Assembly (NCBI RefSeq): GCF_964204645.1
Contig: NC_134026.1
Location: 7,959,950 to 8,023,949 of the forward strand
Origin: Tubulanus polymorphus
Lineage: Eukaryota > Animalia > Nemertea
Length of the DNA stretch: 64,000 nucleotides
Direction: 5' to 3'
A program made the position numbers and the translations under genes. Shown in pieces: positions 1-64,000 of the stretch; the stretch's first letter is position 1, and each line of letters begins with the position of its first letter. The notes beneath the pieces were generated by a model. The model did not search any database and was not told the origin of the DNA. It saw nothing but the letters and a program-made list of their open reading frames with translations.

Positions 1-184
1 CTAGCATAAATTTCCAGTTTCTCAATGTAGGGGGCGCTGGTAGAAGAGGAATTTGTGCCAGTTTCTCATTGTAGAGAGCGATTTTAGTATCATTTGGTTC
101 CATTTCCTCACTGAAGGTGGCGCTGGTAATGTGAGTAATCAATTCCTGTTTGCCACTATTATGGGATCAGTAGGGCGCGCTTAC

Positions 185-7667: not shown

Positions 7668-7711
<44 letters not shown>

Positions 7712-7916
7712 TTAATCCATATAGCGTCCTTATACTGTATACCTGTCTTCCTGGTGGCACCTCTGATAAATCTGGCCCCATATACAGTAAGAATCCATCC
7801 GAGGCTTTCGTACGGAAGTAAAGAGTAACTTTAGTAAAAGATCCGGCAGTTTCTATTTTCTGTGGATTTCTCAGCCTTAACGTAGTGTTACTGTAGTAGG
7901 TCATCGCCACACGGAT
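185..7916 (-). CDS. Laminin alpha LG1-LG5 domain exons
   Basis: LG motifs: [75 protein letters not shown]. Confidence 0.93.
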
Positions 7917-21548: not shown

Positions 21549-21585
<37 letters not shown>

Positions 21586-33500: not shown

Positions 33501-35290
33501 AATAACAGGTCAAGAGGCTATCAGGGTCAAGAGGCTATCAGCCAGGGAGATACTGTGTTTTTAAACACTATAAACCTCTAAATGACATAATAAATCGATA
33601 ACTTACCCGCCTGGTAACACTAGGCGCCTGTCGAGCTACAGCCATTAAATGTCCCAGTAAAGTTTTAGTTCTCAAAAGTCGAAGTCGAACATTCGTAGCT
33701 TTAGTGAATTCTTGTAAGTCGTGAGCATATGAGAAATTATTTGCACTTTTACGCCCGTTAACCAAAGAGACCACAATCTGAGAGAAACAATTAGATTAAT
33801 TCAATACCTTGAAATTATTTTTACATGTTTTGATCGAAAAACAATAGTGAACTTTCTGCCTACCTCGCCACCTTCCAATGGAACGACTTTCGAGAAATCT
33901 GTTGTGCAAATAACGCTATTGTCATCTTCAATCTCGTAAAGGGTCGTATTAAAATAGTTGAGACAATCGTGTTTCGAGGTAGCGAAATACTGCCAGGCGT
34001 TCCAGGTTAGACCGTAATCAGTGGATCTCTCTAAAGCCCAGATACCCGGTCGAGGAGAGTTAGCCATACGTATGAATACATAGGCCACGTGGAATTCCTA
34101 AATACAAAACATTTATATCGATTCAAAACACAATTTTTTATTGATTTTATAACATCCCCTTAGAATTAGGTCAACCATCTATAGAACTTCTGAGAGTGTG
34201 GCCTAGATGCATACAACGTAATTCTTTTTTCAACAAGCAGCCAACTCACTTAAAAATCATTCCCAAGCATAATTGATTAACAAAGGCCTAATCAACAAGG
34301 TGTCTGGGATAATTAACATGTCAACTATTAATAAGTGAGGTAATTAATTGTTATTCTAAGAGGAGGCAATTTAATCAATAAGCCGAATAGGCAGCCCCAC
34401 TTCATTAGAGCAGGAAATTCCAATGAGGCAAAAATGTCAGATGAGAAACAAAGGAATCGTTTCTAGAGGTGCGGAATTAGAAGTTTAGTTAGCACTGAGT
34501 GTAGATACAGGACTCCACCAGAAAATCCTACCATCACTGACAAAAAGTATATCACAAGAAATGACTTATTATCACTAGTAGAAGTGATTTAAAATCTATT
34601 GTTGTTATGAATGTTCCTACTACATGTCCTATGGATGACGAAAACATCCCTTTCAAAGATCTTTGTTTAATTAAGTACTAGGCCTAATTCTAAAACGTTT
34701 AGATTCCATGGTTAGATGCTTTATAATGGTTAATATCTTATTCTTCCAGGCAAAATACCTTAATATTTAATCATTAATCATTAGAATAATCGAGTTGATA
34801 AGCCTAATTCAATACCATGTATAACGAAATAAAACAAATGATATTCAAAATTTACCTGTCCCAAGTCGATGGTTAAGTTAATGGCATTATATTCCATACC
34901 CCTGGATAAGGGGGGACTTTGCCACCATCTTTCAGATCCATCCACCGCATAGTCGGCAGGATGCGCGTGGTTCTGGTCGTTAGCGTCGCAATAATCACAA
35001 TACTGTCCTTTGATTAAAATTGGATCTTTAATTTGTAAATTCGCTGAACTGCTTCCAATATTGGCGTCGGGATTCTCTTCCCCTGCGTAATTAGTACCGG
35101 TCAGTTTACAATACCATTCTCTATCTGAAACTCCCTGACCACAAGTATCCGACGCGTAAATATGTTTTCCCTCCGCTAAATTAAAATATGGCGGGTTTAA
35201 AACTTGCGATTTAACAGTAGTGGCGAATAGTATAAAACAGCAGAGCGTCACTGCTGCGATGCCCGACGAGGCCTCCTCCCTCGATGCCAT
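185..35290 (-). CDS. LanA: Laminin alpha chain (LAMA3/5, LanA type), multi-exon; 3' end lies beyond the window start
   Basis: ATG at 35290 then signal peptide and LN domain ([44 protein letters not shown]). Then LE repeats, LF/L4 domains, coiled coil and five LG domains in the expected order, separated by GT-AG introns. Confidence 0.97.
615..1248. mobile_element. Putative hAT-like MITE
   Basis: Ends CAGTGGCGGA...TCTGCCACTG are inverted; no clean target-site duplication seen. Confidence 0.45.
3525..3810. repeat. AT-rich minisatellite (ATATGTAAATGATATATCAG-like)
   Basis: Direct tandem degenerate copies. Confidence 0.85.
4644..4915 (+). mobile_element. piggyBac-like MITE copy 1
   Basis: TTAA-CCATTTCAGTGC...GCACTGAAAGGG-TAAA; internal sequence shared with five other copies. 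Confidence 0.85.
7653..7730 (-). repeat. (AAT)n microsatellite, probable 3' tail of an L2-like retroelement
   Basis: Pure AAT run adjacent to a GCGCTATA-like end motif on the minus strand. Confidence 0.7.
8327..12473 (-). CDS. Laminin alpha coiled-coil (domain I/II) exons
   Basis: Heptad-rich exons such as [53 protein letters not shown]. Confidence 0.85.
10375..10663 (+). mobile_element. piggyBac-like MITE copy 2
   Basis: TTAA-CCCTTTCAGTGC...GCACTGAAAGGG-TTTA. Confidence 0.88.
11495..11700. repeat. ~21-bp minisatellite (GGAGGAATCTGTATTCTTTAA)
   Basis: Direct tandem copies. Confidence 0.9.
12474..18507 (-). CDS. Laminin alpha LE repeats and laminin IV (L4) domain exons
   Basis: [22 protein letters not shown]; [22 protein letters not shown]; [17 protein letters not shown]; [16 protein letters not shown]; [13 protein letters not shown]. 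Confidence 0.9.
13028..13217. repeat. Two diverged direct copies of a unit starting GGTCCGCACTTA
   Basis: GGTCCGCACTTA...GGACGACC.ACCTACTGCCTCCCTCCC occurs at ~13028 and ~13152. Confidence 0.75.
15790..16072. repeat. GC-rich minisatellite (GTGCCCTCTCCAGTGTGGGAGTAT-like)
   Basis: Tandem degenerate copies; accounts for the repetitive ORFs here. Confidence 0.88.
16224..16511 (+). mobile_element. piggyBac-like MITE copy 3 (intact, TTAA TSD)
   Basis: TTAA|CCCTTTCAGTGC...GCACTGAAAGGG|TTAA. Confidence 0.92.
17213..17326. mobile_element. Short palindromic MITE-like element
   Basis: GGGCCC...GGGGTTAACTCAATT / AATTGAGTTAACCCC...GGGCCC hairpin; similar short palindromes at ~2900-2988, 13653-13815 and 26607-26850. 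Confidence 0.6.
18518..18738. repeat. 55-bp tandem repeat x4
   Basis: TATTTATCC..ATAGTTATC recurs at 18518, 18573, 18628, 18683. Confidence 0.9.
18867..23577 (-). CDS. Laminin alpha LF/L4-type globular insert exons (LAMA3/5-specific)
   Basis: [58 protein letters not shown]-like segments between LE blocks. Confidence 0.8.
21453..21900 (-). mobile_element. 3' fragment of an L2-type LINE with (AAT)n tail
   Basis: Minus strand encodes [20 protein letters not shown]...[10 protein letters not shown] (typical L2 ORF2 C-terminus), then GGCGCTTACAATA and a long AAT run (21453-21600). Confidence 0.82.
22387..22669 (-). mobile_element. piggyBac-like MITE copy 4 (TTAA TSD)
   Basis: TTAA|CCCTTTCAGTGC...GCACTGAAAGGG|TTAA, opposite orientation to copy 3. 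Confidence 0.92.
23937..30811 (-). CDS. Laminin alpha LE (laminin EGF-like) repeat exons, first block
   Basis: Many short exons with the CxC...GQCxCKxNYxGxxCDxCxxGFYxFPxC pattern (e.g. ORFs 27983-28207, 26880-27122, 25566-25988, 24896-25093). Confidence 0.9.
24325..24758. repeat. 40-bp tandem repeat x11
   Basis: TCTCACTGAT recurs every 40 bp from 24341 to 24741. Confidence 0.95.
27380..27752. repeat. Degenerate GATATCAC/GATAATATC minisatellite
   Basis: Repeated short palindromic units. Confidence 0.7.
28220..28490. repeat. ~20-bp minisatellite (GTTCGATTAGAAAATAAA)
   Basis: Tandem copies. Confidence 0.85.
28900..29236. other. Head-to-head pair of tRNA-like (Pol III box B) sequences
   Basis: GGTTCGAAT(T/C)CCTGCCG on the minus strand (~28908-28925) and plus strand (~29209-29226), with shared upstream motif GCAGGG.TTCGT.CC.TGGC. 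Confidence 0.55.
30040..30402 (+). mobile_element. 3' fragment of an L2-type LINE
   Basis: [15 protein letters not shown]...KTYLF, then GCGCTACAT...AATAAATTATTACTATTATC tail. Confidence 0.75.
31239..31893. mobile_element. Nested stack: hAT-like MITE containing a Penelope-like fragment and a truncated piggyBac-like MITE (31581-31811)
   Basis: Outer ends CAGGGATGGATCTAG / CTGGATCCGCCCCTG; 31435-31580 matches 20821-20975; 31581-31815 matches the TTAA MITE family. Confidence 0.65.
31913..34097 (-). CDS. Laminin alpha LN-domain and first LE exons (about 33864-34097, 33607-33777, 31913-32117)
   Basis: [25 protein letters not shown]; [11 protein letters not shown]; [20 protein letters not shown]; canonical splice sites. 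Confidence 0.9.
32475..32762 (-). mobile_element. piggyBac-like MITE copy 6
   Basis: TTAG|CCCTTTCAGTGC...CACTGAAAGGG|TTAA. Confidence 0.9.
34856..35290 (-). CDS. Laminin alpha first coding exon (signal peptide + start of LN domain)
   Basis: [38 protein letters not shown]...IDLGQ, followed by donor gtaaat at 34855. Confidence 0.93.
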
Positions 35291-36378
35291 CTTCACAACT
35301 ACTGATTGCTGTTGATTACAGCCGCACGTGTAATACTAGCTGCTTGCCCGATGTCTTAGCTTAGTTCATATCCACCAATCAAATCTCTTCAATTGGCTAC
35401 GGATTCTGGTTACGGACACATAACCAGTGGCGCCACCAATTTCTGGCGCGAAAACACGAGAAACGTGTTTACGAGTTTTACCATGGATAAAGTAGGTCGT
35501 GAAGACGAGTGACGAATTGACGAGTGAAGAAATTCGTAATTTTGCATTTCTCAGTGCACCACAGGGTCCCCAGGGACCTTTTAGGATGTAAAATACGTGA
35601 CCGGGCGCGGGCCCGGTGTCGATATGGCTAGCAATAACAAGAGTTACAGCAAAATCTGTTTACCCTTGTAATTAAAACATGGAAACAATGCCACCGGTAA
35701 AAATGCCACCTGTGAAAATGACAGTAGGATAAAATGCGACCAAATTCTAAAGCTTGGAATGAACAATGATGGATAATAAAAACACAACAGTTTATTTTGA
35801 GACTTTCTATCCAGATTATATACATACATGTATAAAGGCATTCGAAATTAAGATAAAAAACCACTGCATACAAATTAAAAGTTTGAAATCGACAATTAAC
35901 CAATTACGACGTAGAATAGAGTGAACGGTTAGTGAACGGTCATGACGACGGGTTGCTTGCTCCTTGGAAGACCATGAGCTGGGAGAATCTGAATCTTAGG
36001 AATGCCGGTTCTTTTCTACAAAAGGGTCCAGAGTCTTAAGAGTGCAAAGTTCTAGTATTCGAGTCGTAATTTGAAATCTCGAGAGGACGGTTACCAACAT
36101 GTGTGTAGGCTAAAAATTGTGTATTAACATGTTTTAACCGGTAAAGTAAGATTGATTGTGTAGGCCTATTAACGAATTTGGCCCACTGAAAGTCTGGTAT
36201 TTAAAAAATAGTGATCTTATCAAGGTAAATTGAATATATTTCATCAATCATTATTCAGTCTCAGCATTTCAGTCTCAAAAGTTCGTCAATTGCGTAAATT
36301 TGTTCGTCAATTCCTCAATGCAGCTTGACGATGAAATTGACGAAATCGACTAAATCTTATTTTAGCACTTTTTGGCAC

Positions 36379-48398: not shown

Positions 48399-50344
48399 GT
48401 AACAAAAAAAGCGGAAGTAACGTCAGTGTTAGGGAACTCGTGGGAATTCGAGTAAGGTGATATGATGTGAAAAGGGCTGTTTTGAATTTCGTTTTATTAA
48501 GAAAAAAAGATCGTCGAAGCGTATGAAACCGGGCGTTTATGATATCTTGTCAAAAAAGTCAGAGCGTGACCTACATATTCCTCTCCGGGTCAGATTGTGT
48601 AACAAAACTGACAAAATATTGAAGCTGCATCTTTATCATTGTCCACAGACATCAATTAAATTGGTCGAGTAGTTTTCGCTCAGTAACAAAATTAGTCCAG
48701 CATTCAAAATTCGAGAACTCTAGTGGGAATCAATAACCTACATGACTAACCAGTAATATGGCAGTAACAGTCATTGAGAATTACAGAAACTTTTACTGAA
48801 CTCGCTAATATATCATCGACAAAATGTGTGTTACCTAACTTTTTTGTTCTGTGTATATTTGTTCTTCAAAAGTGTACGTTGTACCTATACTCTGTTTGTA
48901 ATTCAAGTATATAAACCAGTTTTTGTGCTCCTTTGGAATTTCTTGAATTTTACTGTGGAGCAATAAATTTAACGTAATATTTAAATTCTAATTGTATAAT
49001 AGATTTTGATGTCGTCTGCAATGTTATTCCCGTGACAAGGAAAACTCGACCTATTTACAGTGAAAAAACCCGAACTTTTCACAGGGAACTTCAAAAACAA
49101 CCCTAAACAATTGAATGGGTGCGGGGTCACGTGTTTGAAATTGACCAATCAGAAACTTCCATGGTGACATATTCTAGAAAAAAAACAAATCTTTTACGAA
49201 AATATCAAACACGAGATATTCAAAACTATTCAAAAAAGGTTGCAGCCCGTCGTGCAATAGGCAGACGGTTATTTGGAAAGAAAGTATTTGTTTAGGATTT
49301 ATGATAGACAATTGTTTGGGGGGACTAAAACATGAGCTAACAAAACTTACCCTGAACAAAGAACAGAACCAGTAAAAACATAATCTGTAACTGATCCATC
49401 CTGTTGTAGAGTCGTTAGTCACCTGTAGAACTGCCGTCGTCTGTCTCCAGTAAAACTGCTCGTCTGTCTCCTGTAGAACTGTCGTGTCACCAGTAGATCT
49501 GCTATCCTATATCACCAGTAGAATTACTGTCTTCTGTCCACGATAGAACTGGATACCTGTCACCTGACGCCTTTAAATTCCTGTTTGAAATATAGCGACA
49601 ACCAATGAATTGAAACAGAACTGTGATGTGCAGTTTTACTCGTAAGCGCTGAATACAGGCATTTATTTCATTGAGAAATAAACATTACAAACTCATACAA
49701 ATGAATTACATTATATTTGATTCAAATTCAAGCCTGAATTCAAAATCAAACCGAAATCGTGTGATTACTGTAAGGGTGATCTCATGCTCCTAGTTCATGT
49801 CAAAAGATCAGTACTTGCGATGAGAGAATTAAGTTGCTTAGGAGTAACAAGCCATGTTTAAACTGCCTTGGCAAAAACTTATTTATCGTCTTGTCATTGT
49901 ACGTAGGTTCTGAATTGAAGGTGAGCCAGGTAGCCGAAATGTTTTACTTGTTGACAATTCCGACGACTTCAAAAACAAATTCTGTTAAGACAGAATTCAG
50001 AATTAATTCCTTAGATAAATAAACTAGATTGGAAATTAAGCCATTGATGGTCCATAAGATTTTAACACCACTTAAGAACAAACTCTCACAGCGTTTTCTG
50101 AATTCATTTGCAAGATTTATAGTTAACTGTGAATAATATTAAATTCGCCAAAATCTACCACTATTTACTCAGATTTTGTGAAAGTTTACATTGTGAAATG
50201 TAAATGCAACTACATGTGATAACCATTCGACTTACATCAAAATCAGTTGGAAGCTTTTAGCAGAAGTAATTGGGAAAGTAGGGTTTCAGATCAGAGGTCG
50301 AAGGTCGAACACTCATCACCACAAGTAATTTTTTTTCCTTATAA

Positions 50345-50551
50345 ATGGAAGAGAATAAGACAGAACAAATTGATGTTAATGAAAATCAATATCATTGTCC
50401 ATATTGTAAAAAATACATTGATAAATCAAATAAACCTTACATGGAAAACGTTAGAAATTATATTGATTCACTAGAAATAAAAGATACAATTGAAATTTTA
50501 GAAATATTACGCAGTAAAATTGTGACACACATAAACAGTGAGTGCGCGTAA
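50345..50551 (+). CDS. Small hypothetical protein (single CPYC motif)
   Basis: ORF starts at TAAATG with a duplicated promoter block. Confidence 0.6.
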   Translation: MEENKTEQIDVNENQYHCPYCKKYIDKSNKPYMENVRNYIDSLEIKDTIEILEILRSKIVTHINSECA

Positions 50552-50690
50552 CAACAGCTGCGCGTGTGTTAACTGTACCCGGATAAATAGATGCTGTGAG
50601 GCTTGGGTGAGAACGGTTAATAGCGTGCTTGTTATATACAAGGGGAAGTAATCCCCACTCATCACCACAAATAATTTTTTTTCCTTATAA

Positions 50691-51017
50691 ATGGGAGATA
50701 GAAAAGCATTCTTAGCAACAATAAATAACAGAATAAAACCAGCAAAAAAACAATTTGAAATAAAAAAGTTAGTTGATGTTACAAAAGAAATTGAACATAA
50801 AATATTGAAATTAGAAAAGATAAAAACTAAATATGGAGAGAAAGTATCAGCTAATTTAAGCTACTGTAATGTTAGTACATCGCGAGAATTTAAAGTATTT
50901 TTACCTGATAAATGGGTTTCATTGAGTACAGAGGAATTAAAAGATTTAGAAGGATTTAAAATAATATATCATGGAAAAAATGAAGACGGCCATCATGATT
51001 TAGAAATTGTTGATTAA
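50691..51017 (+). CDS. Small Polinton-type protein, possibly OB-fold/ssDNA-binding
   Basis: KLEKIKTKYGEKV...FKVFLPDKW...IIYHG pattern recalled from invertebrate Polintons; TAAATG start; fold assignment is inference. Confidence 0.6.
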   Translation: MGDRKAFLATINNRIKPAKKQFEIKKLVDVTKEIEHKILKLEKIKTKYGEKVSANLSYCNVSTSREFKVFLPDKWVSLSTEELKDLEGFKIIYHGKNEDGHHDLEIVD

Positions 51018-51178
51018 ATTTAAAAAAATAAATTAATAAAAATAATGAATATCTAGAATCCGAAATGACTTATCTGGACAATTTAATTGCTCCGCATAGA
51101 TAGACAAAAGTAGTGAGATATTCAATTAATATTCAATTAATTAAAAAAAATTATTTTTTTTGCTTTTTTTCTAAAATT

Positions 51179-51547
51179 TTAATCCATTTTTTTTATTATC
51201 AATTTTGGAATTTCAGAAGTATTTTCATTTTTGATAGCAGTTGTTTCAGAATTATTAATATCATGAATTTTATTTGATTTCTTATACCAATTACACCCAA
51301 TCAAAATGAATACAATTACAAATCCAAATGTAAAATATAGACATTTATCAAATATTCTATTATCAGAAGGAGTAGAAATAACAACATTTTCACCATTTTT
51401 ATTAACATTTTTATTACTTATTTTTTCTTTTACAGCTTTTTTATATTCTTGTGATTTAATTCCTAATTGCCGAGACCATTCAATTTGTTTCTGAGTTCTC
51501 GGTTTTTTCTTCACAGTTAATTCCTTCACTTCTTTCACCTCGCTCAT
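51179..51547 (-). CDS. Basic protein with one transmembrane helix
   Basis: KKKPRTQKQIEW N-terminus; LYFTFGFVIVFILIGC; TAAATG start. Confidence 0.7.
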   Translation of the reverse strand: MSEVKEVKELTVKKKPRTQKQIEWSRQLGIKSQEYKKAVKEKISNKNVNKNGENVVISTPSDNRIFDKCLYFTFGFVIVFILIGCNWYKKSNKIHDINNSETTAIKNENTSEIPKLIIKKMD

Positions 51548-52086
51548 TTATTATAGAAATATTTTTACTTTCAATATTTGAAAATGTTATAACCCCAGTT
51601 GATAATAATGTCATAAATCCACCTAATTGAAACGATAAATATCCAATCCATTTATTTAATTCAGTCATAACTAAATAATCATTTTTTAAATCGGAATATA
51701 ATCTATTTTCATCTTCAATTGGTAGTATATAATTACATAATTTACTATAACCTTTTACTACATTTTCTGATATCGCGTCATTAATTCTAGCTGTTCTCGC
51801 GGCTTCATGAATCTTAAATAATCTAATAATTTCAAATGATTTCATTGTATCTAATTCATTATAAGTTAAATTTTTATCGACAAAATTTTTTACATTTTCC
51901 AGATGCTATTAATATTTCTAATTGATGTTTGCAATAAAGATAATATTCATAATTATTATTTGTTGTAACATTATTTAAAGCACCATCATCTGGAATTAAT
52001 TTGTTTTCTGTTATTCCTAAATCATCTAAAGTTTTTTCAATTGGAACATCACCATTTTTAGATTTTATTTTCTTTTCACCTACCAT
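51480..52086 (-). pseudogene. Hypothetical protein with C-terminal hydrophobic segment, +1 frameshift
   Basis: ORFs 51874-52086 and 51480-51845 join (CKNFVDKNLTYNELDTMK) if one A is removed from the A6 run near 51890. Confidence 0.7.
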
Positions 52087-52117
52087 TTATATAACAAAAA
52101 AATTAGTTGTGATGTTG

Positions 52118-52368
52118 CAACTAGAATTTAACTAGAATGTAACTAGAATTCAACTAGATTAACAAGCTAGTTGAAATATTGTTGTTTTTGTTTATTTCTA
52201 GTTAATTCTAGTTGATTTTTGTTTCAACTACTAACAACTAGAATTCAACTAGAATGTAACTAGAATTAAACTAGATTAACAAGCTAGTTAAAATATTGTT
52301 AAATCTAGTTGATTTTTGTTCCAACTACCAATAACTAGAATTCAACTAGATTAACAAACTAATTGAAT
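52118..52368. repeat. AACTAGAATT-based direct/inverted repeat array inside the Maverick
   Basis: Two ~120-bp higher-order copies built from CAACTAGAAT units and their inverse. Confidence 0.85.
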
Positions 52369-52977
52369 TTAAATAAATTCATATTTAAATGGGTGTTGTA
52401 ATCTAAATAGTAATTTTGATCTTTTAATATTTTTCAACTTATCCATATATTCATTATGTAAATCATGTGGAATAATATCATTTTCCTCAAGCGCATTTTT
52501 CATCGATTTTCTATCTTTATTGTAGAATAAAACTAGAAATCTAATGTTTTCTCTAAAGTCTTTAACAATTGAATTATATTTTTGATTTAAAACCCAAGTT
52601 GTTATCCCAAAATGTCTCCCATAGAAAGCTAGATAACATAACTCACTTTCTCTAACTTTTGAATCATGTAAATTTGCGCAATCATCTATAATAAATAATG
52701 TATTTGATCCTTTATAAATATCAATTGCTATTTTAATACAATTATTTGAATTTTCTTTTACTGTTTTAGGATCTAATATAATAAATTTATTATTTCTAGT
52801 AATATTTCTATCATAAGTTTGATTAAATTCATACGTTGGGCAAAATAATACTATATTATCAAAATAGTTTTCATAAACAGTTTCTAATAAATTTAATATA
52901 AAATAAGTTTTTCCACAATTTGTTACGCCAGAAATTAACATATTATGAGGCTCAAATATAAATAATTCCTTATTCAT
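52369..52977 (-). CDS. A32/FtsK-like genome packaging ATPase
   Basis: Walker A GVTNCGKT, Walker B LFIIDD, GRH motif, then VLNQ. Confidence 0.93.
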   Translation of the reverse strand: MNKELFIFEPHNMLISGVTNCGKTYFILNLLETVYENYFDNIVLFCPTYEFNQTYDRNITRNNKFIILDPKTVKENSNNCIKIAIDIYKGSNTLFIIDDCANLHDSKVRESELCYLAFYGRHFGITTWVLNQKYNSIVKDFRENIRFLVLFYNKDRKSMKNALEENDIIPHDLHNEYMDKLKNIKRSKLLFRLQHPFKYEFI

Positions 52978-54106
52978 TTATATATTTTTAATTTTACTTG
53001 ATAATATCCATTCATTGAATTTATCTGGCCATCCTACCCATTTTACTAAAGAATATTTTTTTCTTTTAATAGTTTTTGTTTTTAATACTTTTTCAATTTT
53101 ATATTCTTGTTCTAGATTTTCAGTAGTTAAACTTAATTCTTCTTCGTAAAAGTAGCCATCAACTTCTTCACCATCTAAATCTTCTAATTTATAGACATAT
53201 GGTTTTGTTGTTATTACCTTTTTTATTTTATATATTACTCTAGTAAAATTTCGATCGTATCCTTTATCAAATATCTTTTTATACTTAGAAATTCTAACAT
53301 TTTGACCAACTTTAAATTTAGGTTCACCAAAATCATCTACAAGAAATACTCCATATAAATTATTCCAAACAATTTCAGCATTTTCAGGTTTTCTAGCATC
53401 AATAGGTTTCATTCCAATAGAAGAATGATAAGAATTATTATATCCTTCTATCAATTTTGGTAAAACATCAATCCATTTAAAAGTATTATTTGCTGTAAAA
53501 TATTTCCACATTCTTGTTCTTAATGTTCTATTAAATCGTTCAACAACTGCTGCTTTTTTATCTGATTTTGTTGAAAAATATTTAATATTATGATTATCTA
53601 AGAGTTCATGAACAAGTGAATTATCAAACTCTTTTCCATCATCAAATTGTATTTTTTTCTGGTTTTAGTTTATCATCCGAAAGAAATTTTCTTAAAACAT
53701 TTGATGTTTGTACAGCATCTTTTCTATAAAGTGGGAAGCTCCATACATAACGACTAAAAATATCAATTATATTCAATAACCACCAATAATCATCATTATC
53801 TTTCTTAACATTTTTCATATCAATTAAATCTCCTTGCCACTGTTGATCTACATAACTTACCATAGTTTTACGAGTTTTATATTTTCTAACAATTTTTTTA
53901 TGTGTTGTATATGTTGGTTGTTCTAACATAAATTCATTTATATCTTCATATTTAACTAAATTTTGTGGGATTATCTTATCTAATTTATCTTGTTTTACTT
54001 GACGCCATATATTTTTGGTAGAAGAATAAGCAACCGAACTCTCAGGGTTGTAATATAAATTTCTTAAATATTGGTCCGTAGTATTAGGAGTTTTTTTACC
54101 TCCCAT
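52978..54106 (-). pseudogene. Retroviral-like (rve) integrase with C-terminal chromodomain, +1 frameshift
   Basis: WQGDLIDM, IDIFSRY, (QF)DDGKEF, KAAVVERFNRTLR, YKIEKVL...LVKWVGWPDKFNEW; frames join after removing one base from the T7 run at 53652-53658. Confidence 0.93.
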
Positions 54107-54136
54107 TTATATATCGTTAATTTTAAATTTATATTT

Positions 54137-55399
54137 CTAATATTGAATACTATCTAACTGTGAATTTACAATATTTAATTGTGCGTCAGATATAATATAA
54201 ATGTGCATTTTGAAATTTTTGTCTCCTTTTTTCTTTTTCATGAATAATTGTATTCCATCTTTAGTGTTCTGTAATTTCTTCCCAGAACCATGTAATGAAT
54301 TATCCTCTGTTGTTCTAAAATCTAACCATAATGCATATTTATTACCGGTATAATAATCAATTTGATTAATATTACAATTTTCAAATGATTTTACTTTTTC
54401 ATTCATAAAATGTTTTCTAATTTCTGGCCATTGATCAATCATTCTCATTCCTTGACAAAATATTTTATTTGCTATTCCTTCGATAGTTATTTCAACTTTT
54501 GTTATTTTAGGATTATAATAATTATCTACCTTTATTGCACCATTAGAATATGTTGCAATGGTAAAAAATATTAATATACCTTCTTGGTATTAACTATTAA
54601 TAGTTCTTCTTGGGAAGTTAATATTCTCATTAATTATTTCATCATTTGCATTAATAGTTACAGTTTTAAATTTATCAATATAATCATATAATAATGAAAA
54701 TCCTTGATTGTATTGAGTTTGAATTGTGCTAGCAATATTTTCATTAGTTACTGTGTTATATTCTAAACATATATTCGATAATTTATAACCCATATCTTTA
54801 ACAACGCTAGATAATACAATTTCATTTACGGGAGCAAATGTTATCTCAAATATAATATCTTCTTGAATTGCATATTTATATAAAGGTGAATTGTTATTTA
54901 TCAATTCAAAGTCTAATGGAATTTTATATTTGCTTCCATTAATCTTTTTAATCAAATTATCTGTGGCACGAGTTACTATTGCGTCATTAGCTCCTGATCT
55001 TAATTTATTATGGTTTTCCGATTGAATACCCTGAAATATCATATTATTTCTATTTTCTTTAGTTAACCATAAATCTTTATAATGCATAAATAAATTATAA
55101 TCATCTAATGAGAAAACTGTTTCTGGACCAATCTTTATTGTTAACTTTTTAATCAAATATCTTCCAACATTATCAACAACATAATTGTTATCATGACCAG
55201 TTACTTTTATATCGGCTGATAAATAAATACTATTTGGAACATAAAAAGTATTTTGTGTTAATCTAGGAATTCTAACATATAAAGTTTCATCGGGATTAAT
55301 ATTTGAAGGGTTATGAGTAATTATATGATGTGATCTTTCTGCTTTAATAGCATTAAATATTCTAGAAATCTTAGAAGGACTTATATAACTCCCACTCAT
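54137..55399 (-). pseudogene. Major capsid protein (double jelly-roll), in-frame 15-bp insertion with stop
   Basis: HIITHNPSNINPDETLYVRIPRL, YKLSNICLEY, NFPRRTI..GILIFF, YYNPKITKVEITIEG, YALWLDFR..DNSLHGSG, YIISDAQLNI; both ORFs are in one frame. Confidence 0.85.
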
Positions 55400-55439
55400 T
55401 TATTTAACAAAAAACTTAATTATTTATTTTTGATCATGG

Positions 55440-56878
55440 TTACTTGATATTTTTTGATATCATGTTTACTAAACCAAAGATAATAGTACTTACAACTGTA
55501 ATTAAAAATAGAATAATATGTTCAGCGGCAAAGTTAAGAATATTCCCAGCAGATTTCAATATAAAACCAACAATTGATGCAATAACTCCTGGCAATACTG
55601 CAGCAGATTTTTTAGATAGTTCCCATAAATATTTTGCTAATTTCTTTAAACCATCCTTAACTTTATCTTGTATAGAATTATTATCATTCGGGGGTTTATC
55701 CGGTTTATTGGGAGTAGGAGTAGATTTCAAAGCATTTGATATTGCTAAACCAATTGTTGTAGTAACATAGTTACAGCTGCTAGAATTGAAAGAATTGTTA
55801 TTCCTTCTAATTTAAATAATAACTTTATTCTATCTTTCAGTGATATTTCAGAATTTGGTTTAATCAACAAATCTTTAAAAATAACTTTTAATCTATTTAT
55901 ATTATAATCATATGATTTTAATAATAATTTAATTTCTTCTTTTTGTACTTCTAAATTATCTTTTAAATTATTAATTTCTTTTTCTAAACGTAATTCTTTT
56001 TGTCTATATTCTATTTCATCAATTACTTGATGATCTAAATCAGACTTTAATTGTTCTATTTCTTTATTTTTATCAGTTAATTCTTTTACCAAATACATAA
56101 TTTTTTGATCTCTTATACTTTTATTATGTGCAATTTTATCAGATGCAAGTCTTATACTAATAATTTCTCTAATTGCTTTATCAGAAAATATATCTAAATC
56201 TTCTAATTCTTGATCTGTTGCATCAAGTAATCCATTCGGTAAAAGTTTTTCAATTGGAACTTTATTTGATTTAAGTTTACTAGTTTTGGAAGTTATATTC
56301 TGTTCAGATGTTGTTTCTGTTTCTGATTTCTTTTTGATTATTTCAAATAATTCATTAATTCTTTGTTTAAATACGTCTATATTATCATCTATTTCTTTTT
56401 GTGTAACATCAGTTATTTCATTACTATTACTTATTATTTTAATTCTATCTGGTTTTAATTTTTCTAAAGTTGATTCTGATAACATTTTAGTTTTATTATT
56501 TTTATAAGTGATATCAATATAATAATCACCTTTCAAACGATAATAACATTTACCATTATCTAAAAATTTTAATTGATCTGCTAAAAGTCCAACGTCTTCA
56601 TCATTTATGTTAAGTTTAGATTTTTCAATTAAATCTTCTAATTAAGGTATTTTGTTTAAATTATCTATATCTTGTTTTACTAAATCTGGGTCTAAATTTT
56701 CAGGATTTAATTGTGATTCTGCATTTTTAATATAATCAAGCATATTCAAATTATTATTATATTCTGGCTCATTACCATCATTAAAACTTGTTTCATCAAA
56801 ATCAGGTGGTTGTTCATCAGTTATACCAGGTTCATCAAAAGGATCCATTCCAATATCTTCTCCACCTTCTACATCCAT
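55440..56878 (-). pseudogene. Long acidic/coiled-coil protein with C-terminal transmembrane/amphipathic helices (one stop, one frameshift)
   Basis: ORFs 56642-56878 and 55745-56536 are in frame across a TAA; frameshift at ~55765 joins to ...LPGVIASIVGFIL...IILFLITVVSTIIFGLV. Confidence 0.75.
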
Positions 56879-56893
56879 TTATATAAAAAAAAA

Positions 56894-58335
56894 TTAAAAT
56901 TTAAAATATAATATTCCTCCGATTACAATTCCTATACAGGTTATAGCTAATTTAGTATTTTCATGGGATTTATTGTCATTATCAGTTTTAATTATATCAT
57001 GTTGAATAACACCGTGTGGGTGCCATACGGCACCATTATCAGTTTTAATATCACCATGTGGGTGCCGTACGGCACCATTTTCTGTAGTATTGTAATCTTT
57101 TATTTTGGAATCATTATCCAATTTAATATTCTTAGTTTTAGTTTCTGTTGATTGAATATGTTTTTTATTTTTTTTACCTTCCATTAATTTTGGAGCAGTG
57201 ATAATCTTTTTATTTATATCATTTAACCCAAATGAATTATTTATTGTAGCAGTTTTAATTAGATTATTATAACCAATTATGTTTCCCATCTTTAATACTA
57301 AATCATTAGAAATAATTAATAGATTAGGGCCTATACAATAATTTAATCTAATATGTGATTTATCTAAATAATTTTGATATCTTATAATGTTTTCTGGAAT
57401 CGATCTATTTTTATCATTATGTATGGAATCTTCAAATAATACTTTGAATTGTTTCTGTGTATCAAATGATGTATTCAAATTTCCAATTATCGGTGATCTT
57501 GTTTCAACTTGCGCACCTAAAATACATATCAAATAAGTTCTAATAGATTGATTTATTCTTTGTATACCTGATTTTGTAAAACCTTCATTATTTTCTAAAA
57601 TTAAATAAACCCAACCATTATTGTTTTCTTGTTTTAAATTATCATAAAATTTCGGTAATTTATTGAAATTTAATGTTTCTAAATCCTTTGTTTCTATTTT
57701 ACCATAACCTAATTTATTATTATAGATATTATAAAAGCTATTAGATGGTATGGGAAGTGCACAATATTCTGCAATCTTTTTAGGGCAAGGAAGTGATCTT
57801 ATTGTTCCAATTTTTGTTCTAAAATCAGAATTATTTATATCTATATTAAATTCATTACAAATTTTATAAAACTTTGATGAATTAATATTATATCTAATTC
57901 TTTAAAATATCTTGATCCTGGTAAAGCGCACTCTAATTCATTTAATATTATTCTGATTTGAAAGTATGTATGAAATCTAAATAAACTTTGAATTAATTTA
58001 TATTTAGAATTATTCAAATGATCATTCCAACTAATTCCACAACCTGTTGTTGCACAATAAACAGCAAAATTTAATTGGTTCTGCCAATACTTCATATTAG
58101 ATTTTAATAACCATTGTTTTTCATCTTTCAATTTTTTAAAATTAATTAAATATACATGAAATATATTTTCCATCTTTGCATTAAAATTATTAGTTTCAGT
58201 AACATAAATTTCTAAATTAGTTAATGAATCTAAAACTTCATTTCTATATGTAATATCTTTATTAAAATCTATTGCTGGAATATTATATTTAATTGATTTA
58301 TTATATTGGAAAGCTTTTGGAAAACTATCTGCCAT
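56894..58335 (-). pseudogene. Conserved Polinton hypothetical protein with C-terminal TM anchor (frameshift ~57890)
   Basis: WQNQLNFAVYCATTGCGIS, FHTYFQIRIIL; the alternative frame is open through GFTKSGIQRINQSIRTYLICILGAQ to the TM tail. Confidence 0.75.
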
Positions 58336-58351
58336 TTATATAATTAAAAAA

Positions 58352-58786
58352 TTAATAATTTATTAATTCTTTTAATAATTTATCTTGTTCTTCAACTGTT
58401 ATATGACCATTTAAACTTATGATATAATCTAGTGTGTTCTTTAATTTATTAATTTCTTTTATATTAGTTTTAATTTTTTCTTTATTACTTTTTATATTTA
58501 ATTTTGAACTTATACCAGTTAAAACACTTGAACTTAATCCTAATACGCCAATTGATATAGCCAAAGGTGTTAATGGACTGAATATTGCTAGAAATGTTAT
58601 TACAGAACTAATTGTAACCGAACCACTAATAATCAAATAATATATAATTTTACTTTTTAAATATTTTTTCTTTTTTATCTTTAAGTCACTTTCAAATTCT
58701 AATATTTGTTTTTCTAAATATATTTTTAATTTAGTTTTATTTATATCATGAGGAATGATATCAATACTATCAACTTTATCTTCCAT
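58352..58786 (-). CDS. Two-TM membrane protein
   Basis: Two adjacent hydrophobic helices flanked by basic/coiled segments; TAAATG start. Confidence 0.75.
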   Translation of the reverse strand: MEDKVDSIDIIPHDINKTKLKIYLEKQILEFESDLKIKKKKYLKSKIIYYLIISGSVTISSVITFLAIFSPLTPLAISIGVLGLSSSVLTGISSKLNIKSNKEKIKTNIKEINKLKNTLDYIISLNGHITVEEQDKLLKELINY

Positions 58787-58806
58787 TTATTTAGCAAAAA
58801 AAATTA

Positions 58807-59228
58807 CTAATTAGTAAACTTATAAGCAACAAATATAACAATAACTGTTCCACCTAAAATCCAAATTATTTCATATTTCTTCTGTTCATTACTTGGGATA
58901 TAATAATCTGATAATTTAGGTTTGTATAGATGTAATTTTTCTTTATTGGTTACCGCGTTATATAAACCCATTGCATCATCAACTGATTGAAAATCTCTAT
59001 GTGAAATCTTCTGATCATATAATTCCTTGTTAATATAATCCATATAGTTTGTCTCTTTTCTCTATATTCTTCCGCAGCTTTATTATATTTCTCTAACGCT
59101 AAGTTATGTCTTCTTTGTTCTCCTAATGAACTATTTTTATCAATATGTTTAAATAAATAACCACCACCAGTAAATGCCAAAGCGTTAACAATTGCTGATC
59201 CTATAATAGTTATAATTGCAGAAGCCAT
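58807..59228 (-). pseudogene. Membrane protein with N- and C-terminal hydrophobic helices (frameshift ~59050)
   Basis: MASAIITIIGSAIVNALAFTGGGYLF...RHNLALEKY joins MDYINKEL...IIWILGGTVIVIFVAY. Confidence 0.72.
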
Positions 59229-59252
59229 TTATTTAGTAAAAAAATTATGCAT

Positions 59253-59474
59253 TTATATGGGAGGAATATATTTTTGTTTTTCTAAATAATCAATAGTTAA
59301 ATTAGATAAAGTAATTGCTAATGTTAAATTTAAAATATCATTTATATCAAATCTATCAACATTAACACTTCCCATTTTGAATACTTTTTTTAATACCATT
59401 GAATAACCAACAGTTCCAACAGATAGTAAGGCGCCATTATATAATCCAGTTATTATCCACTTATTATCACTCAT
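59253..59474 (-). CDS. Small hydrophobic protein
   Basis: 73 aa with two hydrophobic stretches, DYLEKQKYIP end; TAAATG start. Confidence 0.72.
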   Translation of the reverse strand: MSDNKWIITGLYNGALLSVGTVGYSMVLKKVFKMGSVNVDRFDINDILNLTLAITLSNLTIDYLEKQKYIPPI

Positions 59475-59831
59475 TTATTTATCAAAAAAATTACTATCAT
59501 CAAAATATTTAGTTAACTTATTTATGATTAATTCAACATTTATTTCATTACTAGTTTCATTTGTATATATTTCAATTATTATTTTTTTAATATCATCGAT
59601 GATAAAATCTTCATCTAATTCATAAAATCTTAAAGATTCTCTAATTAAATTAGTAATCTTTTCTACATTTAAAGTTTCTTTATCTATTGTTGTTTCATAC
59701 TCAAATGTTATTTCATTAGAAAATGCAATATTTTTAATATGTGTAATTACATCATTAACGTTAAATTTCATTTCTTTCTCACGTTTAAAATCATACCCAA
59801 AACATATACTCGGTCCAACAGTTATATTCAT
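59475..59831 (-). CDS. Hypothetical acidic protein
   Basis: 118-aa ORF with T-run/TAAATG start; its stop abuts the next ATG. Confidence 0.65.
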   Translation of the reverse strand: MNITVGPSICFGYDFKREKEMKFNVNDVITHIKNIAFSNEITFEYETTIDKETLNVEKITNLIRESLRFYELDEDFIIDDIKKIIIEIYTNETSNEINVELIINKLTKYFDDSNFFDK

Positions 59832-59847
59832 TTATATAATGAAAAAA

Positions 59848-60603
59848 TTACTCTTTACATCTTATAACTAATTCATAAATTACAGGAAAGTTATTCAAAT
59901 CAATTAAATAACCATTATGATTTCTTATTTCTAATTTAAAATTATTGAAATGTGGAATACAAGGTTTGAAATCACATTCAGTTAAATTATAATTTATTTG
60001 AGTTCCAAATTGTTTAACATTTTTTAATGGTAAAATATTTAATAAACCAGAATTACAAATTGTATCTTTAGTTGCTTCAAATGTTTTTGTTGGGTCAATT
60101 AAATTACAATAAATATAGAAATGTGTGTAAGGTATTATATTTGAGCTACCTTCTACGTTTCCAGTAACAATACGCGGTTTAATTCCTAACATTTTAGCTA
60201 TTGGTTTGTTTACCATAAATTTATTTTGTTCATTGGCTAACTTTATTTTAATTTCATCAGAACTATCACTTTTTATAAATCTAATTGAAAATTTATCTTC
60301 ACTTTCAAGTTTTAGTCGTGCTTTCCGATTAATTTCTTGGGCTAATGTTTCTAAATTATATAATCCTGGTTTTAAAAATAGATGAAACCATTTATTTTTA
60401 TTTCCAATATGAATTAAAAAGTCTCTATGTTCAAAAGTTTTAGCCGTTATATTATAAAATGAGTTACATAAACTTATATTAACTAATTTTAAATCAACAC
60501 AATTCTTAAATTCCCTATCTAATTGTATTAGTAAATTATGTGATTTATAATTTGTAAGTTTTCTAGAATCAACAAATATTCTGTATTCTTTTAATTCTAC
60601 CAT
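59848..60603 (-). CDS. Minor capsid protein (penton, single jelly-roll)
   Basis: LKPGLYNLETLAQEIN, YIYCNLID, LLNILP, FKLEIRNHNGYLIDLNNFPVIYELVIR are typical Polinton mCP motifs. Confidence 0.82.
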   Translation of the reverse strand: MVELKEYRIFVDSRKLTNYKSHNLLIQLDREFKNCVDLKLVNISLCNSFYNITAKTFEHRDFLIHIGNKNKWFHLFLKPGLYNLETLAQEINRKARLKLESEDKFSIRFIKSDSSDEIKIKLANEQNKFMVNKPIAKMLGIKPRIVTGNVEGSSNIIPYTHFYIYCNLIDPTKTFEATKDTICNSGLLNILPLKNVKQFGTQINYNLTECDFKPCIPHFNNFKLEIRNHNGYLIDLNNFPVIYELVIRCKE

Positions 60604-60671
60604 TATTTATAACATAAAAAAATTACCGCTCATCACTAAAAATTAATTTTAATAAAATTTTTCCTAAATAA

Positions 60672-61947
60672 ATGGATGAGAAGATAGCATGCGAAATTTG
60701 TGGTGAACTTCTAAGAAAAAGTAATATGGCTCGACATATGAAAAAACATGATGAAAATTATAAACCCCCTAAACTAAACTGTCCAAAATGTAATAAATTA
60801 TTCTCAAGAAATTATGTTAAAAAACATTCAGAGAAGTGTAGAATTAATGGCGCAACGGCTAATGTTGTTAGTAATGAAAGTAATAGTAATTCTGCCGAAG
60901 TTGAACCTGAAGTTATTTGGAAAAGACCTTTCTTATTCTATGATAAGGATGATATAAAAGATCATTTCTGTGAGCCTTGTCGAATGAAATTTAGTCCTGA
61001 CAAATATAGAAGATTGGGAGAATCATCAATTTCGTAAAGAACATATAGATAAAATTTCTAATAAATTTGAAACTGAATTTAATGAAAGAAAAAATAATTT
61101 ATTAGAAAAAATAAAATATGAGAAAACGTTACCAGATAATAAAGAAACAGTTGAAAAGTTAGAAAAACAATATAATGAATTAACAAGAAAAACATATTAT
61201 TGTAAATATTGTAAATTGATTATTACAACAAGTAATTCAAATCTACATAATAGAACAATAAAACATAAAGAAAACGTAAGAAAATACCAAGAGCTTAATG
61301 AAGATCTATTACCAATAAATTATAAACAAAAATGCCCACAATGTATTTATGCGACCTTACGACAAGAAGGTACTGTGTTATTTTGTGTTGATTGTGGATG
61401 GCAAAAGAATTTATGGGGTGAAGAAAAAACTAGACATTTTCTCATAGATCCAAAATTAAATTATCTAGATGAAATTTTTAAAATATTTTCTATAGAAGAT
61501 CATACACCAGAATATATGCAATGGCTTGAAAAAATGAAAATAATAGAAAATAAAAATGGTGAAATAACTAAAAAAGATATTATAAATACAATTATTCCGT
61601 CAACATTTAACACAAAACAAAAGAAAATGTATTTATATTTATTATTTAACGATTATTATGAAAAACCTAAATTAACAGAAGAAGATATGGAAAATATAAA
61701 AAAAATATTCAAACAAATATTAATGTATCATTTGGAAAATAGAATAACAGATTCAATAAATTATGAATTCTTTTTAAATAAGATTGTAAATTATTTAAAC
61801 CTAGATATTATAATTCCATTTGACGAATTAACAAACAAAAAGAAACAAAGAGAGCGAGATGAAATGTGGAACAAGATAGAACTTTATTTAAATGAAAAAA
61901 AAATGGAATGGAAGAAGAACCTAAACAAATTATACAAGAACAATTAA
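60672..61947 (+). pseudogene. C2H2 zinc-finger array fused to a VLTF3 (poxvirus A2-like late transcription factor)-like domain, frameshift ~61000
   Basis: CEIC..HMKKH, CPKC..HSEKC, CEPC..HQFRKEH, CKYC..HNRTIKH; then CPQC...FCVDCG zinc ribbon and INYEFFLNKIVNYL...KKQRERDEMWNKI. Confidence 0.7.
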
Positions 61948-61999
61948 ATGAAAATGAAGAAGCCAATAGTGATTTCGAGTTTGATGATATAGATCCATT

Positions 62000-64000
62000 T
62001 TAATAACCATAAGGTAATGTTTTTATACCATCATCTGAAATATGCCTTTTATCATCAAATGGATTCAAACTAGTTTTTTCAGCTTCATTAATGTACATCT
62101 CGTGATTTTCTGATCTTAAACAATTCATTTTATCTTTCATTACAATTGATTTATATAAACACTTTATATAATCTTGAAATTCTATATGTTTATCAACCAC
62201 ATGTTTTGTTATTCCTTTTAACTTTTTAGCTTCATGATCTTTTGTTCTGTAACTATACATTTTACTTCTTATCCCAACAAATTCAATCATTTCATCACCC
62301 CCTAATTCATCTTTAAACTTACTAGGAATCTTTTTATTATCATTGCTAAATAGTTCATGATCTTTGGGATAATTGCTAAAATCAAAATGATGTTTTAATG
62401 TTTTTAAGTCTTTTGTTATATCATTTGTCTTGATTTTTAGTATGTAGGCGTCGGTATTTTTTTGGATTAATGGGAACCCAGAATTGAATGTTCCATCATC
62501 TGTTGATAAATCATAAACATAGTCAGTTGGGTTATATATTTCAAATAAATCTTTAACTTCTTCTGTTAACTCATTTTCTACATGTCTTAAATTAAAGCAA
62601 TTTGGTTTAGATTTAATCAATCCAATATTCATATTAAATCCTAATGAACTGCATAATATATTCAATCCTGATATAGCAACTTTTCCTTTTTGAGCTAAAG
62701 ATATTGTTTTGCGATTTTTGAAACTTTTTGAACCATCTGCAGCATAGAATCCAATGAAGAACCATTTTCTTAAATTATTTTTTGCATTTAATACATAATC
62801 TGGAACTATCTTTTCTTTTGTTGAAGTATTACTTTTAACTATTGCATGAATATAGAATTCATCATTATATTTTATAGCAAACTCTTTAGGATTATTTACA
62901 AGTATTCTATAAACTGCTGTTGATTTCATAACATCCATGATTTTAAATGTTTTATTTGGATAAACTTCTTCACAGAATTTCTTTATTCTTTCTAATAATT
63001 TTAAGTCTTGATTGCATAAATACCAGCAATATTGAGTGCGATTAACATAATTATACACACCTGCTGAACCATCACCCATGAAAAATCCTTTGATAAAATA
63101 TTCTTTTTCTTCTAATGTTTCGGGTTCTACATTATAAATATTATCAATAATTTCATCAAATGAAATATGATTCATTCTTTGGAAAAATCTTTTATGCAAT
63201 AATTCATCTCCAATTTTTATATCAGTTGGTTTTATTTCATCACCATTTCGTTTAATTAAACTATGATCTTCTGTAACATCTACAAATGCTAATTTAGTTT
63301 TTAACTCTATAGATTTTCTTATTTGTTTTATGCCTAATAATATTCTTTAATTTTTTCCATCCATTTCTTGTCCAAACATCCATTAAATCATTTATTTGTA
63401 TTAATTCTTTTTCTCCATATGAAATATAACATTCATTTTGTTTTGGAATTATTTCTGAAATTCTTCTTATCAATATTTTATTATTACATTTTAATAATAT
63501 TGGGGTGTCAGCTGTTACAGAATCAAAATATAATATTTCAATATGCTTTTCCCCAAAAAGTGGTTGTAAAACATTATAATAAAAATCATACATTAATAAT
63601 TTTGATACTTCTAAAACAGTCGAACCAATAAATATAGGTTTATTAAATTTCATTGATGTTCTTTTTAATTTAACTGCTGTTAAATAATCTTCAAATCTTT
63701 TATTTCCTAAATGTCTAGGACTTGATTGTAGGTGTCTTAATCTTTCAGAATTATTTACTAATTCAATATCATTTCTATTTCTAATATTTTCGCATGTTTT
63801 ACCATAAAAACTATTATTCATTAATTTGAAGAAATCTTTTTCAAAATCTGTTTTTGATATGGTTCTCTGTTGAGTATTGAAATCTATATATTTTTCTAAC
63901 CACTTCGATTGATTAAATTCAATATATCTATGTACTTTCTTTAATTTCATTCCTTGTTTTAGATAAAATTTTAACATTCTATAATGAACAATATAATTGT
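62000..64000 (-). pseudogene. polB: Protein-primed family B DNA polymerase (C-terminal part), intein-containing; N-terminus beyond window
   Basis: FFKLMNNSFYGKTCENIRNR, KPIFIGSTVLEVSKLLMYDFYY, YFD|TD, KFKDE, FVGIRSKMY, KLKGI, KTSLNPFDDKR, TLPYGY. Confidence 0.95.
62456..63521 (-). mobile_element. Intein with LAGLIDADG homing endonuclease in PolB (355 aa after removing one extra base)
   Basis: Block A SVTADTPILL, block B VDVTEDHSL, LAGLIDADG motifs FIKGFFMGDGS and FFIGFYAADGS, block F YVYDLSTDDGTF, block G LIQKN followed by extein Thr. Confidence 0.93.

Follow-up and report, generated by a model that had tools for sequence, protein, structure and literature searches.

An intein of the pol-c allele in the protein-primed DNA polymerase of a Maverick/Polinton element flanked by animal genes

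A LAGLIDADG intein of the pol-c allele interrupts the protein-primed PolB (pPolB) gene of a Maverick/Polinton element that lies beside animal genes in the window, by which we mean the whole analysed stretch of 64,000 nucleotides. The intein belongs to a Polinton-specific clade that likely has a single giant-virus-type origin and likely spreads by homing, and the copy in the window is frameshifted and probably inactive. For this reading as a whole we estimate a probability of about 0.75. What is new is that a pol-c intein occurs in a further polymerase class and that its carrier is an integrated element at a locus with animal flanks; endogenous algal viruses and an insect virus with inteins are known precedents. 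The features are listed below.

62456..63521, minus strand: intein of the pol-c allele, Hint splicing domain and two-motif LAGLIDADG endonuclease, frameshift near 63300
63300..63521, minus strand: N-terminal intein piece with Ser1 and block A (SVTADTP), in frame with the upstream polymerase; TIGR01445 E 8e-5
63263..63274, minus strand: block B TEDH, in the second frame, upstream of its first Met
63062..63097, minus strand: LAGLIDADG motif 1 (FIKGFFMGDGSA), acidic residue retained at 63071-63073
62729..62764, minus strand: LAGLIDADG motif 2 (WFFIGFYAADGS), acidic residue retained at 62735-62737
62456..62521, minus strand: blocks F and G (YVYDLST...GFPLIQKN) with the terminal Asn
63522..64000, minus strand: pPolB upstream of the intein, contains NNSFYGK, ends in YFD, continues past the window edge; PF03175 E 3e-5
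62000..62455, minus strand: pPolB downstream of the intein, begins with TDAY, open to its own stop
50310..64000: Maverick/Polinton element, AT-rich (24% GC), left end within 49670-50310, right part beyond the window
52369..52977, minus strand: A32-like packaging ATPase; PF04665 E 1e-12
52978..54106, minus strand: rve integrase with chromodomain, in two frames, split near 53650
54137..55399, minus strand: probable double jelly-roll major capsid protein, interrupted by a stop near 54590
162..35335, minus strand: exon series of a host laminin alpha (alpha-3/5-like) with LN, EGF, domain IV, coiled coil and LG, colinear

The insert measures exactly 1066 bp and extends on the minus strand from the Ser1 codon (63519-63521) to the terminal Asn (62456-62458). 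It splits the catalytic YxD|TD motif (PolB motif C) of the pPolB. At the right end of the window, two overlapping minus-strand frames share the polymerase and the insert. The upstream frame reads NNSFYGK...IEILYFD|SVTADTP...KIYRV and then meets a stop, and the second frame reads VDVTEDHSL...FIKGFFMGDG...FFIGFYAADG...YVYDLST...GFPLIQKN|TDAYIL and continues into the polymerase C-terminus. A single frame change near 63300, inside a five-base homopolymer run, separates the two. The coordinates of the insert, as given in a preliminary description of this DNA, proved exact, and its one frameshift lies near the place stated there. That description had also stated that removal of the insert restores the polymerase motif. 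Consistent with this, the three closest polymerases among the best 120 of 962 (P0216, P0217 and P0218; 72-80% over the exteins) have YFD|TDS there without any gap.

The insert retains Ser1, TEDH, the block F Asp, the terminal Asn, the +1 Thr and both LAGLIDADG aspartates; the block names A, B, F and G and the role of the block F Asp are general intein knowledge. All 190 complete inteins at the pol-c site start with Ser, under an extraction pattern that permitted Ser or Cys at position 1, and 93 of them end in KN and 86 in HN. The penultimate residue of the intein in the window is Lys rather than His, a feature that it shares with those 93, including the Mimivirus intein. A penultimate His is usual in inteins, not obligatory. 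With 52 of 63 conserved residues, the window copy has retained the fewest in the Polinton set, where the six full inteins keep 55-58, and its changed residues include some in the endonuclease part. At least two of the changed positions are also changed in the relative P0063, which indicates that these changes predate the decay of the window copy. Because the frameshift precedes block B, neither the polymerase nor the intein could be made from this copy, barring a sequencing error, and the copy is probably dead. The earlier term 'full-length' therefore applies to the DNA and not to a protein product, in view of the frameshift and the other breaks in the element. Two further explanations of the break were considered. 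A natural split intein was rejected, since the first Met of the second frame comes only after block B, and a programmed frameshift is unsupported, as the relatives read through in a single frame.

Profile and structure comparisons were used to assess the identity of the insert. The C-terminal piece of the intein scores over the Pfam cut-off for LAGLIDADG_3 (E 1e-7). With the Hint profiles, the window pieces remain just under the curated cut-offs (23.6 versus 24.5 bits for TIGR01445 and 19.7 versus 35.8 bits for PF14890), so that in the HMM check suggested in the preliminary description LAGLIDADG scored above its cut-off and Hint slightly short of its own. The intact relative P0236 exceeds the Hint cut-offs (37.7 versus 35.8 bits for PF14890; 32.9 bits for TIGR01445), and P0007 exceeds that of TIGR01445. 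A profile built from 184 non-Polinton inteins gave 64.7 and 252.1 bits for the two window pieces, where the maxima of 200 shuffles per piece were 5.8 and 8.1 bits. An AlphaFold model of the C-terminal piece (pLDDT 84, 40-row alignment) matched 72 structures at E <=0.001, with a best E of 3.5e-9. The low confidence of its last ~22 residues is expected, because half of the splicing domain is missing. The structures matched include TliVMA, PhoVMA, PI-PfuI, PI-SceI and I-DmoI (PDB 7QSS, 7QST, 1DQ3, 1VDE and 2VS8), all of which have the two-motif monomeric LAGLIDADG fold in common with the window. They differ from it in their host genes and target sites and are 15-17% identical; I-DmoI is intron-encoded, the other four are intein-encoded. 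Residues, profile scores and fold agree with the blocks A, B (TEDH), F and G and the two LAGLIDADG motifs noted before. A PDB sequence search with the intein piece gave 0 matches.

The element is a partly decayed Maverick/Polinton, as identified by the combination of a protein-primed PolB, an rve integrase, an A32-like ATPase and a probable capsid protein. The capsid candidate at 54137..55399 matches Capsid_N at E 0.002, under the cut-off, and shows feature matches of 0.96-0.97 to capsid clusters, with a low recognition value (<2300). No match to an adenovirus-like protease was obtained among the element frames scanned, the element extending past the window. The element adjoins the colinear laminin-alpha exon series, which indicates an animal host. 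Of 99 frames tested, chosen from 160, 28 matched laminin families, and the best PDB match of the laminin frames was laminin alpha-5 (E 1e-30). The placement of the intein at the pol-c site of an animal-flanked pPolB, allelic with the PolB inteins of giant viruses, is therefore as the preliminary description had it.

To find relatives of the intein, databases were searched with the intein piece, which returned 58 long proteins as well as 821 representatives, 150 of them listed. Typing of 209 intein relatives gave 154 in RNA-primed PolB, 16 in topoisomerase II, 6 in protein-primed PolB (two of which are the window's own pieces) and 33 without an assignment. The best intein matches among those listed are in protein-primed PolB: the fragment P0063 (75% over 161 aa), P0003 (61-65%), P0236 (51-53%), P0006 and P0007 (42-45% on the C piece) and P0384 (47-59%), the exteins of which are just 27-31% identical to those of the window. 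Apart from P0063 these are intact, with one open frame through both exteins and the intein. Taken together, the Polinton relatives are 42-75% identical, occupy the same insertion site and derive from at least five pPolB lineages. Both endonuclease aspartates are retained in all six full Polinton inteins. For comparison, the Mimivirus intein (P0456) is 46.5% and 41.8% identical to the two window pieces. A scan of JGI metagenomes yielded 11 loci, namely 9 in RNA-primed PolB, 1 without an assignment and 1 Polinton-type polymerase (L002) with an in-frame stop within its intein. In IMG/VR, scans with the window piece and with P0003 gave no match, and a scan with the alignment found one giant-virus locus (a GVMAG contig). 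In GTDB, 64 pattern matches were obtained and 0 confirmed.

Two groups of proteins stood beside these relatives. P0079, P0100, P0137 and P0175 carry short, apparently broken intein fragments that are 46-51% identical to the window, on contigs of 89-239 kb; they are probably decayed filled copies of the P0236 type. Related inteins also occur in the topoisomerase II-type proteins P0005, P0041, P0045 and P0094, in some cases several per protein, which means that the intein family also moved to unrelated genes.

The Polinton inteins form one clade, with a support of 100/100 in a tree of 53 rows, 100 in a tree of 191 rows (FastTree) and 100 in a tree of 42 rows. For the 53-row tree, 41 of 87 PolB-site rows were used, five near-duplicates and two 'other site' rows were left out, and the bootstrap was not fully settled (0.974). 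When rooted on the topoisomerase inteins, the best topology puts the Polinton clade among the RNA-primed PolB inteins. A topology that holds all RNA-primed PolB inteins together was not rejected by the AU test (p-AU 0.132), in a set with one long branch left out. Within these bounds, the phylogeny proposed as a check places the Polinton clade among giant-virus-type pol-c inteins. Its sister group changes between trees, and the Mimivirus intein lies in another branch. The special closeness to the Mimivirus intein that had been suggested is contradicted by this position and by identities of 42-47%, compared to 59-75% for Polinton relatives. A candidate donor group of giant-virus-type inteins ending in GFPLI was supported at 83 in one tree and absent in another, and for this reason we name no donor group. 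The giant-virus label of the RNA-primed hosts is backed for some of them, not all, by the Mimivirus record, the GVMAG contig and one locus with a P8 minor capsid gene. Transfer from giant virus to Polinton seems the likely direction, given that giant-virus-type members are far more numerous and more diverse and given the archaeal and Mimivirus history of the allele (PMC549080, available text). It may have taken place in a co-infected cell. As judged from sequence comparison, the Polinton inteins are an old, Polinton-specific clade; at least five polymerase lineages carry it, some of its members are intact, and there are signs that it homes between Polintons.

The distribution of filled and empty sites was assessed by searching with the exteins. 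In the best 120 of 962 Polinton polymerases, the site was filled in 2, empty in 111 and ambiguous in 7; three filled polymerases were added by hand, so that the 123 comprise 5 filled, 111 empty and 7 ambiguous. The filled polymerases are scattered: each of the two extein trees, of 127 and 117 rows, requires at least four changes, and the nearest rows to the window are mostly empty. In the N-extein tree, 33 of 500 shuffles needed equally few changes; in the C-extein tree, the window, P0063 and P0003 are fairly close. One intein clade on scattered polymerases would fit homing, and many losses could also give this pattern.

A closer view is provided by the P0236 cluster, whose 136 members lie on contigs between 57 kb and 1.0 Mb in length; the 15 listed are 7 filled copies, 6 empty copies and 2 fragments. 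Over a thousand residues upstream of position -11, the difference between filled and empty copies is 1.2-2.0%. At the site, the difference rises to 41.7% at -10..-1 and 32.5% at +1..15, then falls to 16.7% and 11.7% up to +50 and to ~4% beyond. In the two intervals at the site, the empties differ from one another by 24% and 16%, and the filled copies by 0 and 3.8%. No peak at the site was seen in three of the four control clusters consisting of empties alone, and the fourth, with three sequences, varies by 13.3% at -10..-1. The flank of the filled P0236 copies finds its best matches among 129 empties in lineages that are 70-75% identical elsewhere (12-13 of 15 residues), compared to 8-11 of 15 residues for the 12 empty members of its own family. 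This divergence peak is likely the footprint expected of homing. Either the donor flank arrived with the intein by co-conversion or just those empties with an altered site survived, and either course would require an active endonuclease. For haloarchaeal MCM inteins, co-conversion has been described, as have resistant alleles (PMC10643990, available text).

Several observations concern the empty sites and their hosts. P0236 and P0335-P0348 belong to this 136-member Polinton family, in which filled as well as empty alleles are intact and the empty site exists in at least three different forms; of the families compared, it is the most suitable one for a study of homing. Many empty Polinton polymerases (P0210-P0328) carry YxD|CD instead of YxD|TD at the catalytic motif, and this Cys could act as a +1 nucleophile. 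P0215, a Polinton-type polymerase labelled Sulfurimonas sp. in UniRef, is probably eukaryotic or viral DNA in a bacterial bin.

Other histories of the intein were weighed against the homing clade. It might be an ancient resident of an early Polinton polymerase that was lost from most lineages and no longer homes, with the giant-virus inteins as sister and not donor. The single deep clade with identities of 42-75%, the proximity of the window, P0063 and P0003 in the C-extein tree and the sister position left standing by the AU test would suit such a history. We nevertheless regard it as distinctly unlikely, because just 2 of the 120 polymerases taken without selection contain the intein, alleles with and without it occur side by side at ~99% identity and form a sharp mosaic around the site, the endonuclease aspartates have been kept throughout, and the clade spans polymerases that are 27-31% identical. 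A direct and fairly recent jump of a Mimivirus-like intein into the element of the window alone is highly improbable. The nearest inteins among the listed matches are in Polinton polymerases (59-75%), with the Mimivirus intein at 42-47% on another branch, and the intein has the composition of the element (GC3 0.14, compared to 0.12-0.19 in the element), which fits a long residence. What such a jump would explain are the site and terminal residues, which are as in the Mimivirus intein, and the nine codons directly after the intein (62429-62455), where 6 of 9 third positions are G or C against a background of 0.15 (P ~0.0007). Third positions this rich in G and C are found in only 6 of 3051 nine-codon windows in the element, five of them in one other spot; the nine codons after the intein are possibly a foreign flank acquired with the intein.

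The state and the origin of the DNA itself also allow different interpretations. If the frameshift were a sequencing or assembly error, or were bypassed, the window copy would encode a working intein. This is unlikely, though less so than the other alternatives: the break falls in a homopolymer run, as does that of the integrase, and all catalytic residues for splicing and endonuclease activity are retained, but the element carries other interruptions, including in-frame stops near 54590 and 56640. A misassembly, in which a co-sequenced free virus or protist element had been attached to host DNA, could account for the sharp drop in GC at ~50.3 kb, from 38% before to 24% after, and for the lack of a convincing end motif, terminal repeat or target duplication at 49.7-50.3 kb, where the one element end in the window is located. 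Against it, host-type repeats reach 49668, the sequence of the window is free of N, several of the element's genes are broken in a way that suits an integrated copy in decay, and related empty polymerases are annotated in mollusc genomes. A low GC content is moreover to be expected in an insert of this kind, and the majority of genomic Mavericks are degraded according to the available text of PMC8097293. We therefore consider a misassembly very unlikely and the Polinton likely to be truly joined to the laminin-bearing DNA.

Under the homing-clade reading, intact members would splice by the chemistry of the Mimivirus intein. Ser1 would undergo an acyl shift with the aid of the block B Thr and His, which assist this step in the Mimivirus intein (PMC549080, available text). 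Transfer to the +1 Thr would follow, and then Asn cyclisation and ligation. Ligation would rebuild the YxDTD active site with both catalytic aspartates, and an element with a filled polymerase would consequently depend on splicing to replicate. The endonuclease is predicted to cut the empty YxD|TD site of a related Polinton that shares the nucleus; with the filled copy as repair template, the intein and some adjacent flank would then be copied into the break. Motif C codons common to both polymerase classes may have allowed the first jump between them.

The closest known system is the Mimivirus PolB intein (pol-c, or position III; Ogata et al. 2005, PMC549080, available text), which is inserted at the same point of motif C (YGD|TDS compared to YFD|TDA) and shares Ser1, TEDH, the terminal Lys-Asn, the +1 Thr, two LAGLIDADG motifs and a length of ~350 aa. 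The intein of the window differs in that its host enzyme is a protein-primed Polinton PolB and not an RNA-primed one, that it is integrated beside animal genes, that it is frameshifted and that it belongs to a separate clade. Inteins have also been described in endogenous giant-virus DNA polymerases of Klebsormidium, Tetrabaena and a labyrinthulomycete (Gallot-Lavallee et al. 2023, PMC10710043), and these likewise lie within a viral polymerase gene on a eukaryotic nuclear chromosome. Their hosts are algae and a protist, and Polintons, animals and metazoa are mentioned 0 times in the available text of that paper; in contrast to these cases, the carrier in the window is a multi-copy integrating element that allows homing between copies. 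The intein of Chilo iridescent virus resides in a DNA virus of animals as well, but is Gln-terminal, belongs to an iridovirus of the giant-virus group and is not reported as chromosomally integrated in the available text of PMC549080.

Insertions of HNH and VSR nucleases in Polinton pPolB (Jeong et al. 2023, PMC10748475) have been suggested to result from intein invasions (PNAS paper; comment PMC11161782). They resemble the present case in placing a nuclease domain within a Polinton polymerase. They are found elsewhere in the protein, and the available text describes no splicing domain for them, whereas the insert in the window has splicing blocks and splits the catalytic motif. In the available text, 'intein', 'Hint' and 'LAGLIDADG' occur 0 times in PMC10748475, and 'intein' occurs 0 times in PMC8097293 and PMC11131425. 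The literature compared, in its available parts, includes PMC5784728, PMC12220804, PMC3671162, PMC13768754 and PMC5718144. In this literature, no polymerase of a Polinton, Maverick or adintovirus is reported to carry a Hint/LAGLIDADG intein; supplements, subscription journals, InBase or Repbase may mention one. Metazoan genomes are said to be without inteins in the available part of one review.

In our data, the polymerase of a Polinton next to animal genes contains a genuine intein with its splicing blocks. This shows that the YxDTD motif common to RNA-primed and protein-primed polymerases lets an intein allele pass between the two classes, a jump that was thought to need a series of steps (Ogata et al., PMC549080, available text). 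The intein also marks physical contact of Polintons with giant viruses. Intact carriers would have no polymerase without splicing, and a single family contains both filled and empty copies; replication and recombination of Mavericks in their hosts could therefore be addressed directly through this intein. A bolder proposal, to which we give somewhat less than even odds, is that Polintons in animal chromosomes possess their own self-splicing, homing intein lineage derived from giant viruses, which is intact in some animals, drives between Maverick copies and forces the surviving empties to vary their active-site sequence. If this is true, protein splicing and intein homing would take place in the animal nucleus.

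Some minor observations were made in the rest of the window. In the host part, which has LINE remains at 36.9-38.9 kb, pieces of the endonuclease and reverse transcriptase of a broken LINE lie at 36892-39497, and an inverted repeat pair of 279 bp with 88% identity is found at 45622-46354. Eleven element genes share a start motif, a T-run followed by TA(A/T)ATAAATG or TATAAATG, start codon included (50345, 50691, 52086, 55399, 56878, 58335, 58786, 59228, 59474, 59831 and 60672). The pattern has no match in the host part of the window, and the motif may be an element-specific promoter or start signal. A repeat of ~100 nt is present in three imperfect copies at 52073-52383, between the ATPase and the left-hand genes. 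Finally, a gene of 251 aa at 59848-60603 shows feature matches of 0.98 to unnamed viral clusters and possibly encodes a minor capsid protein.
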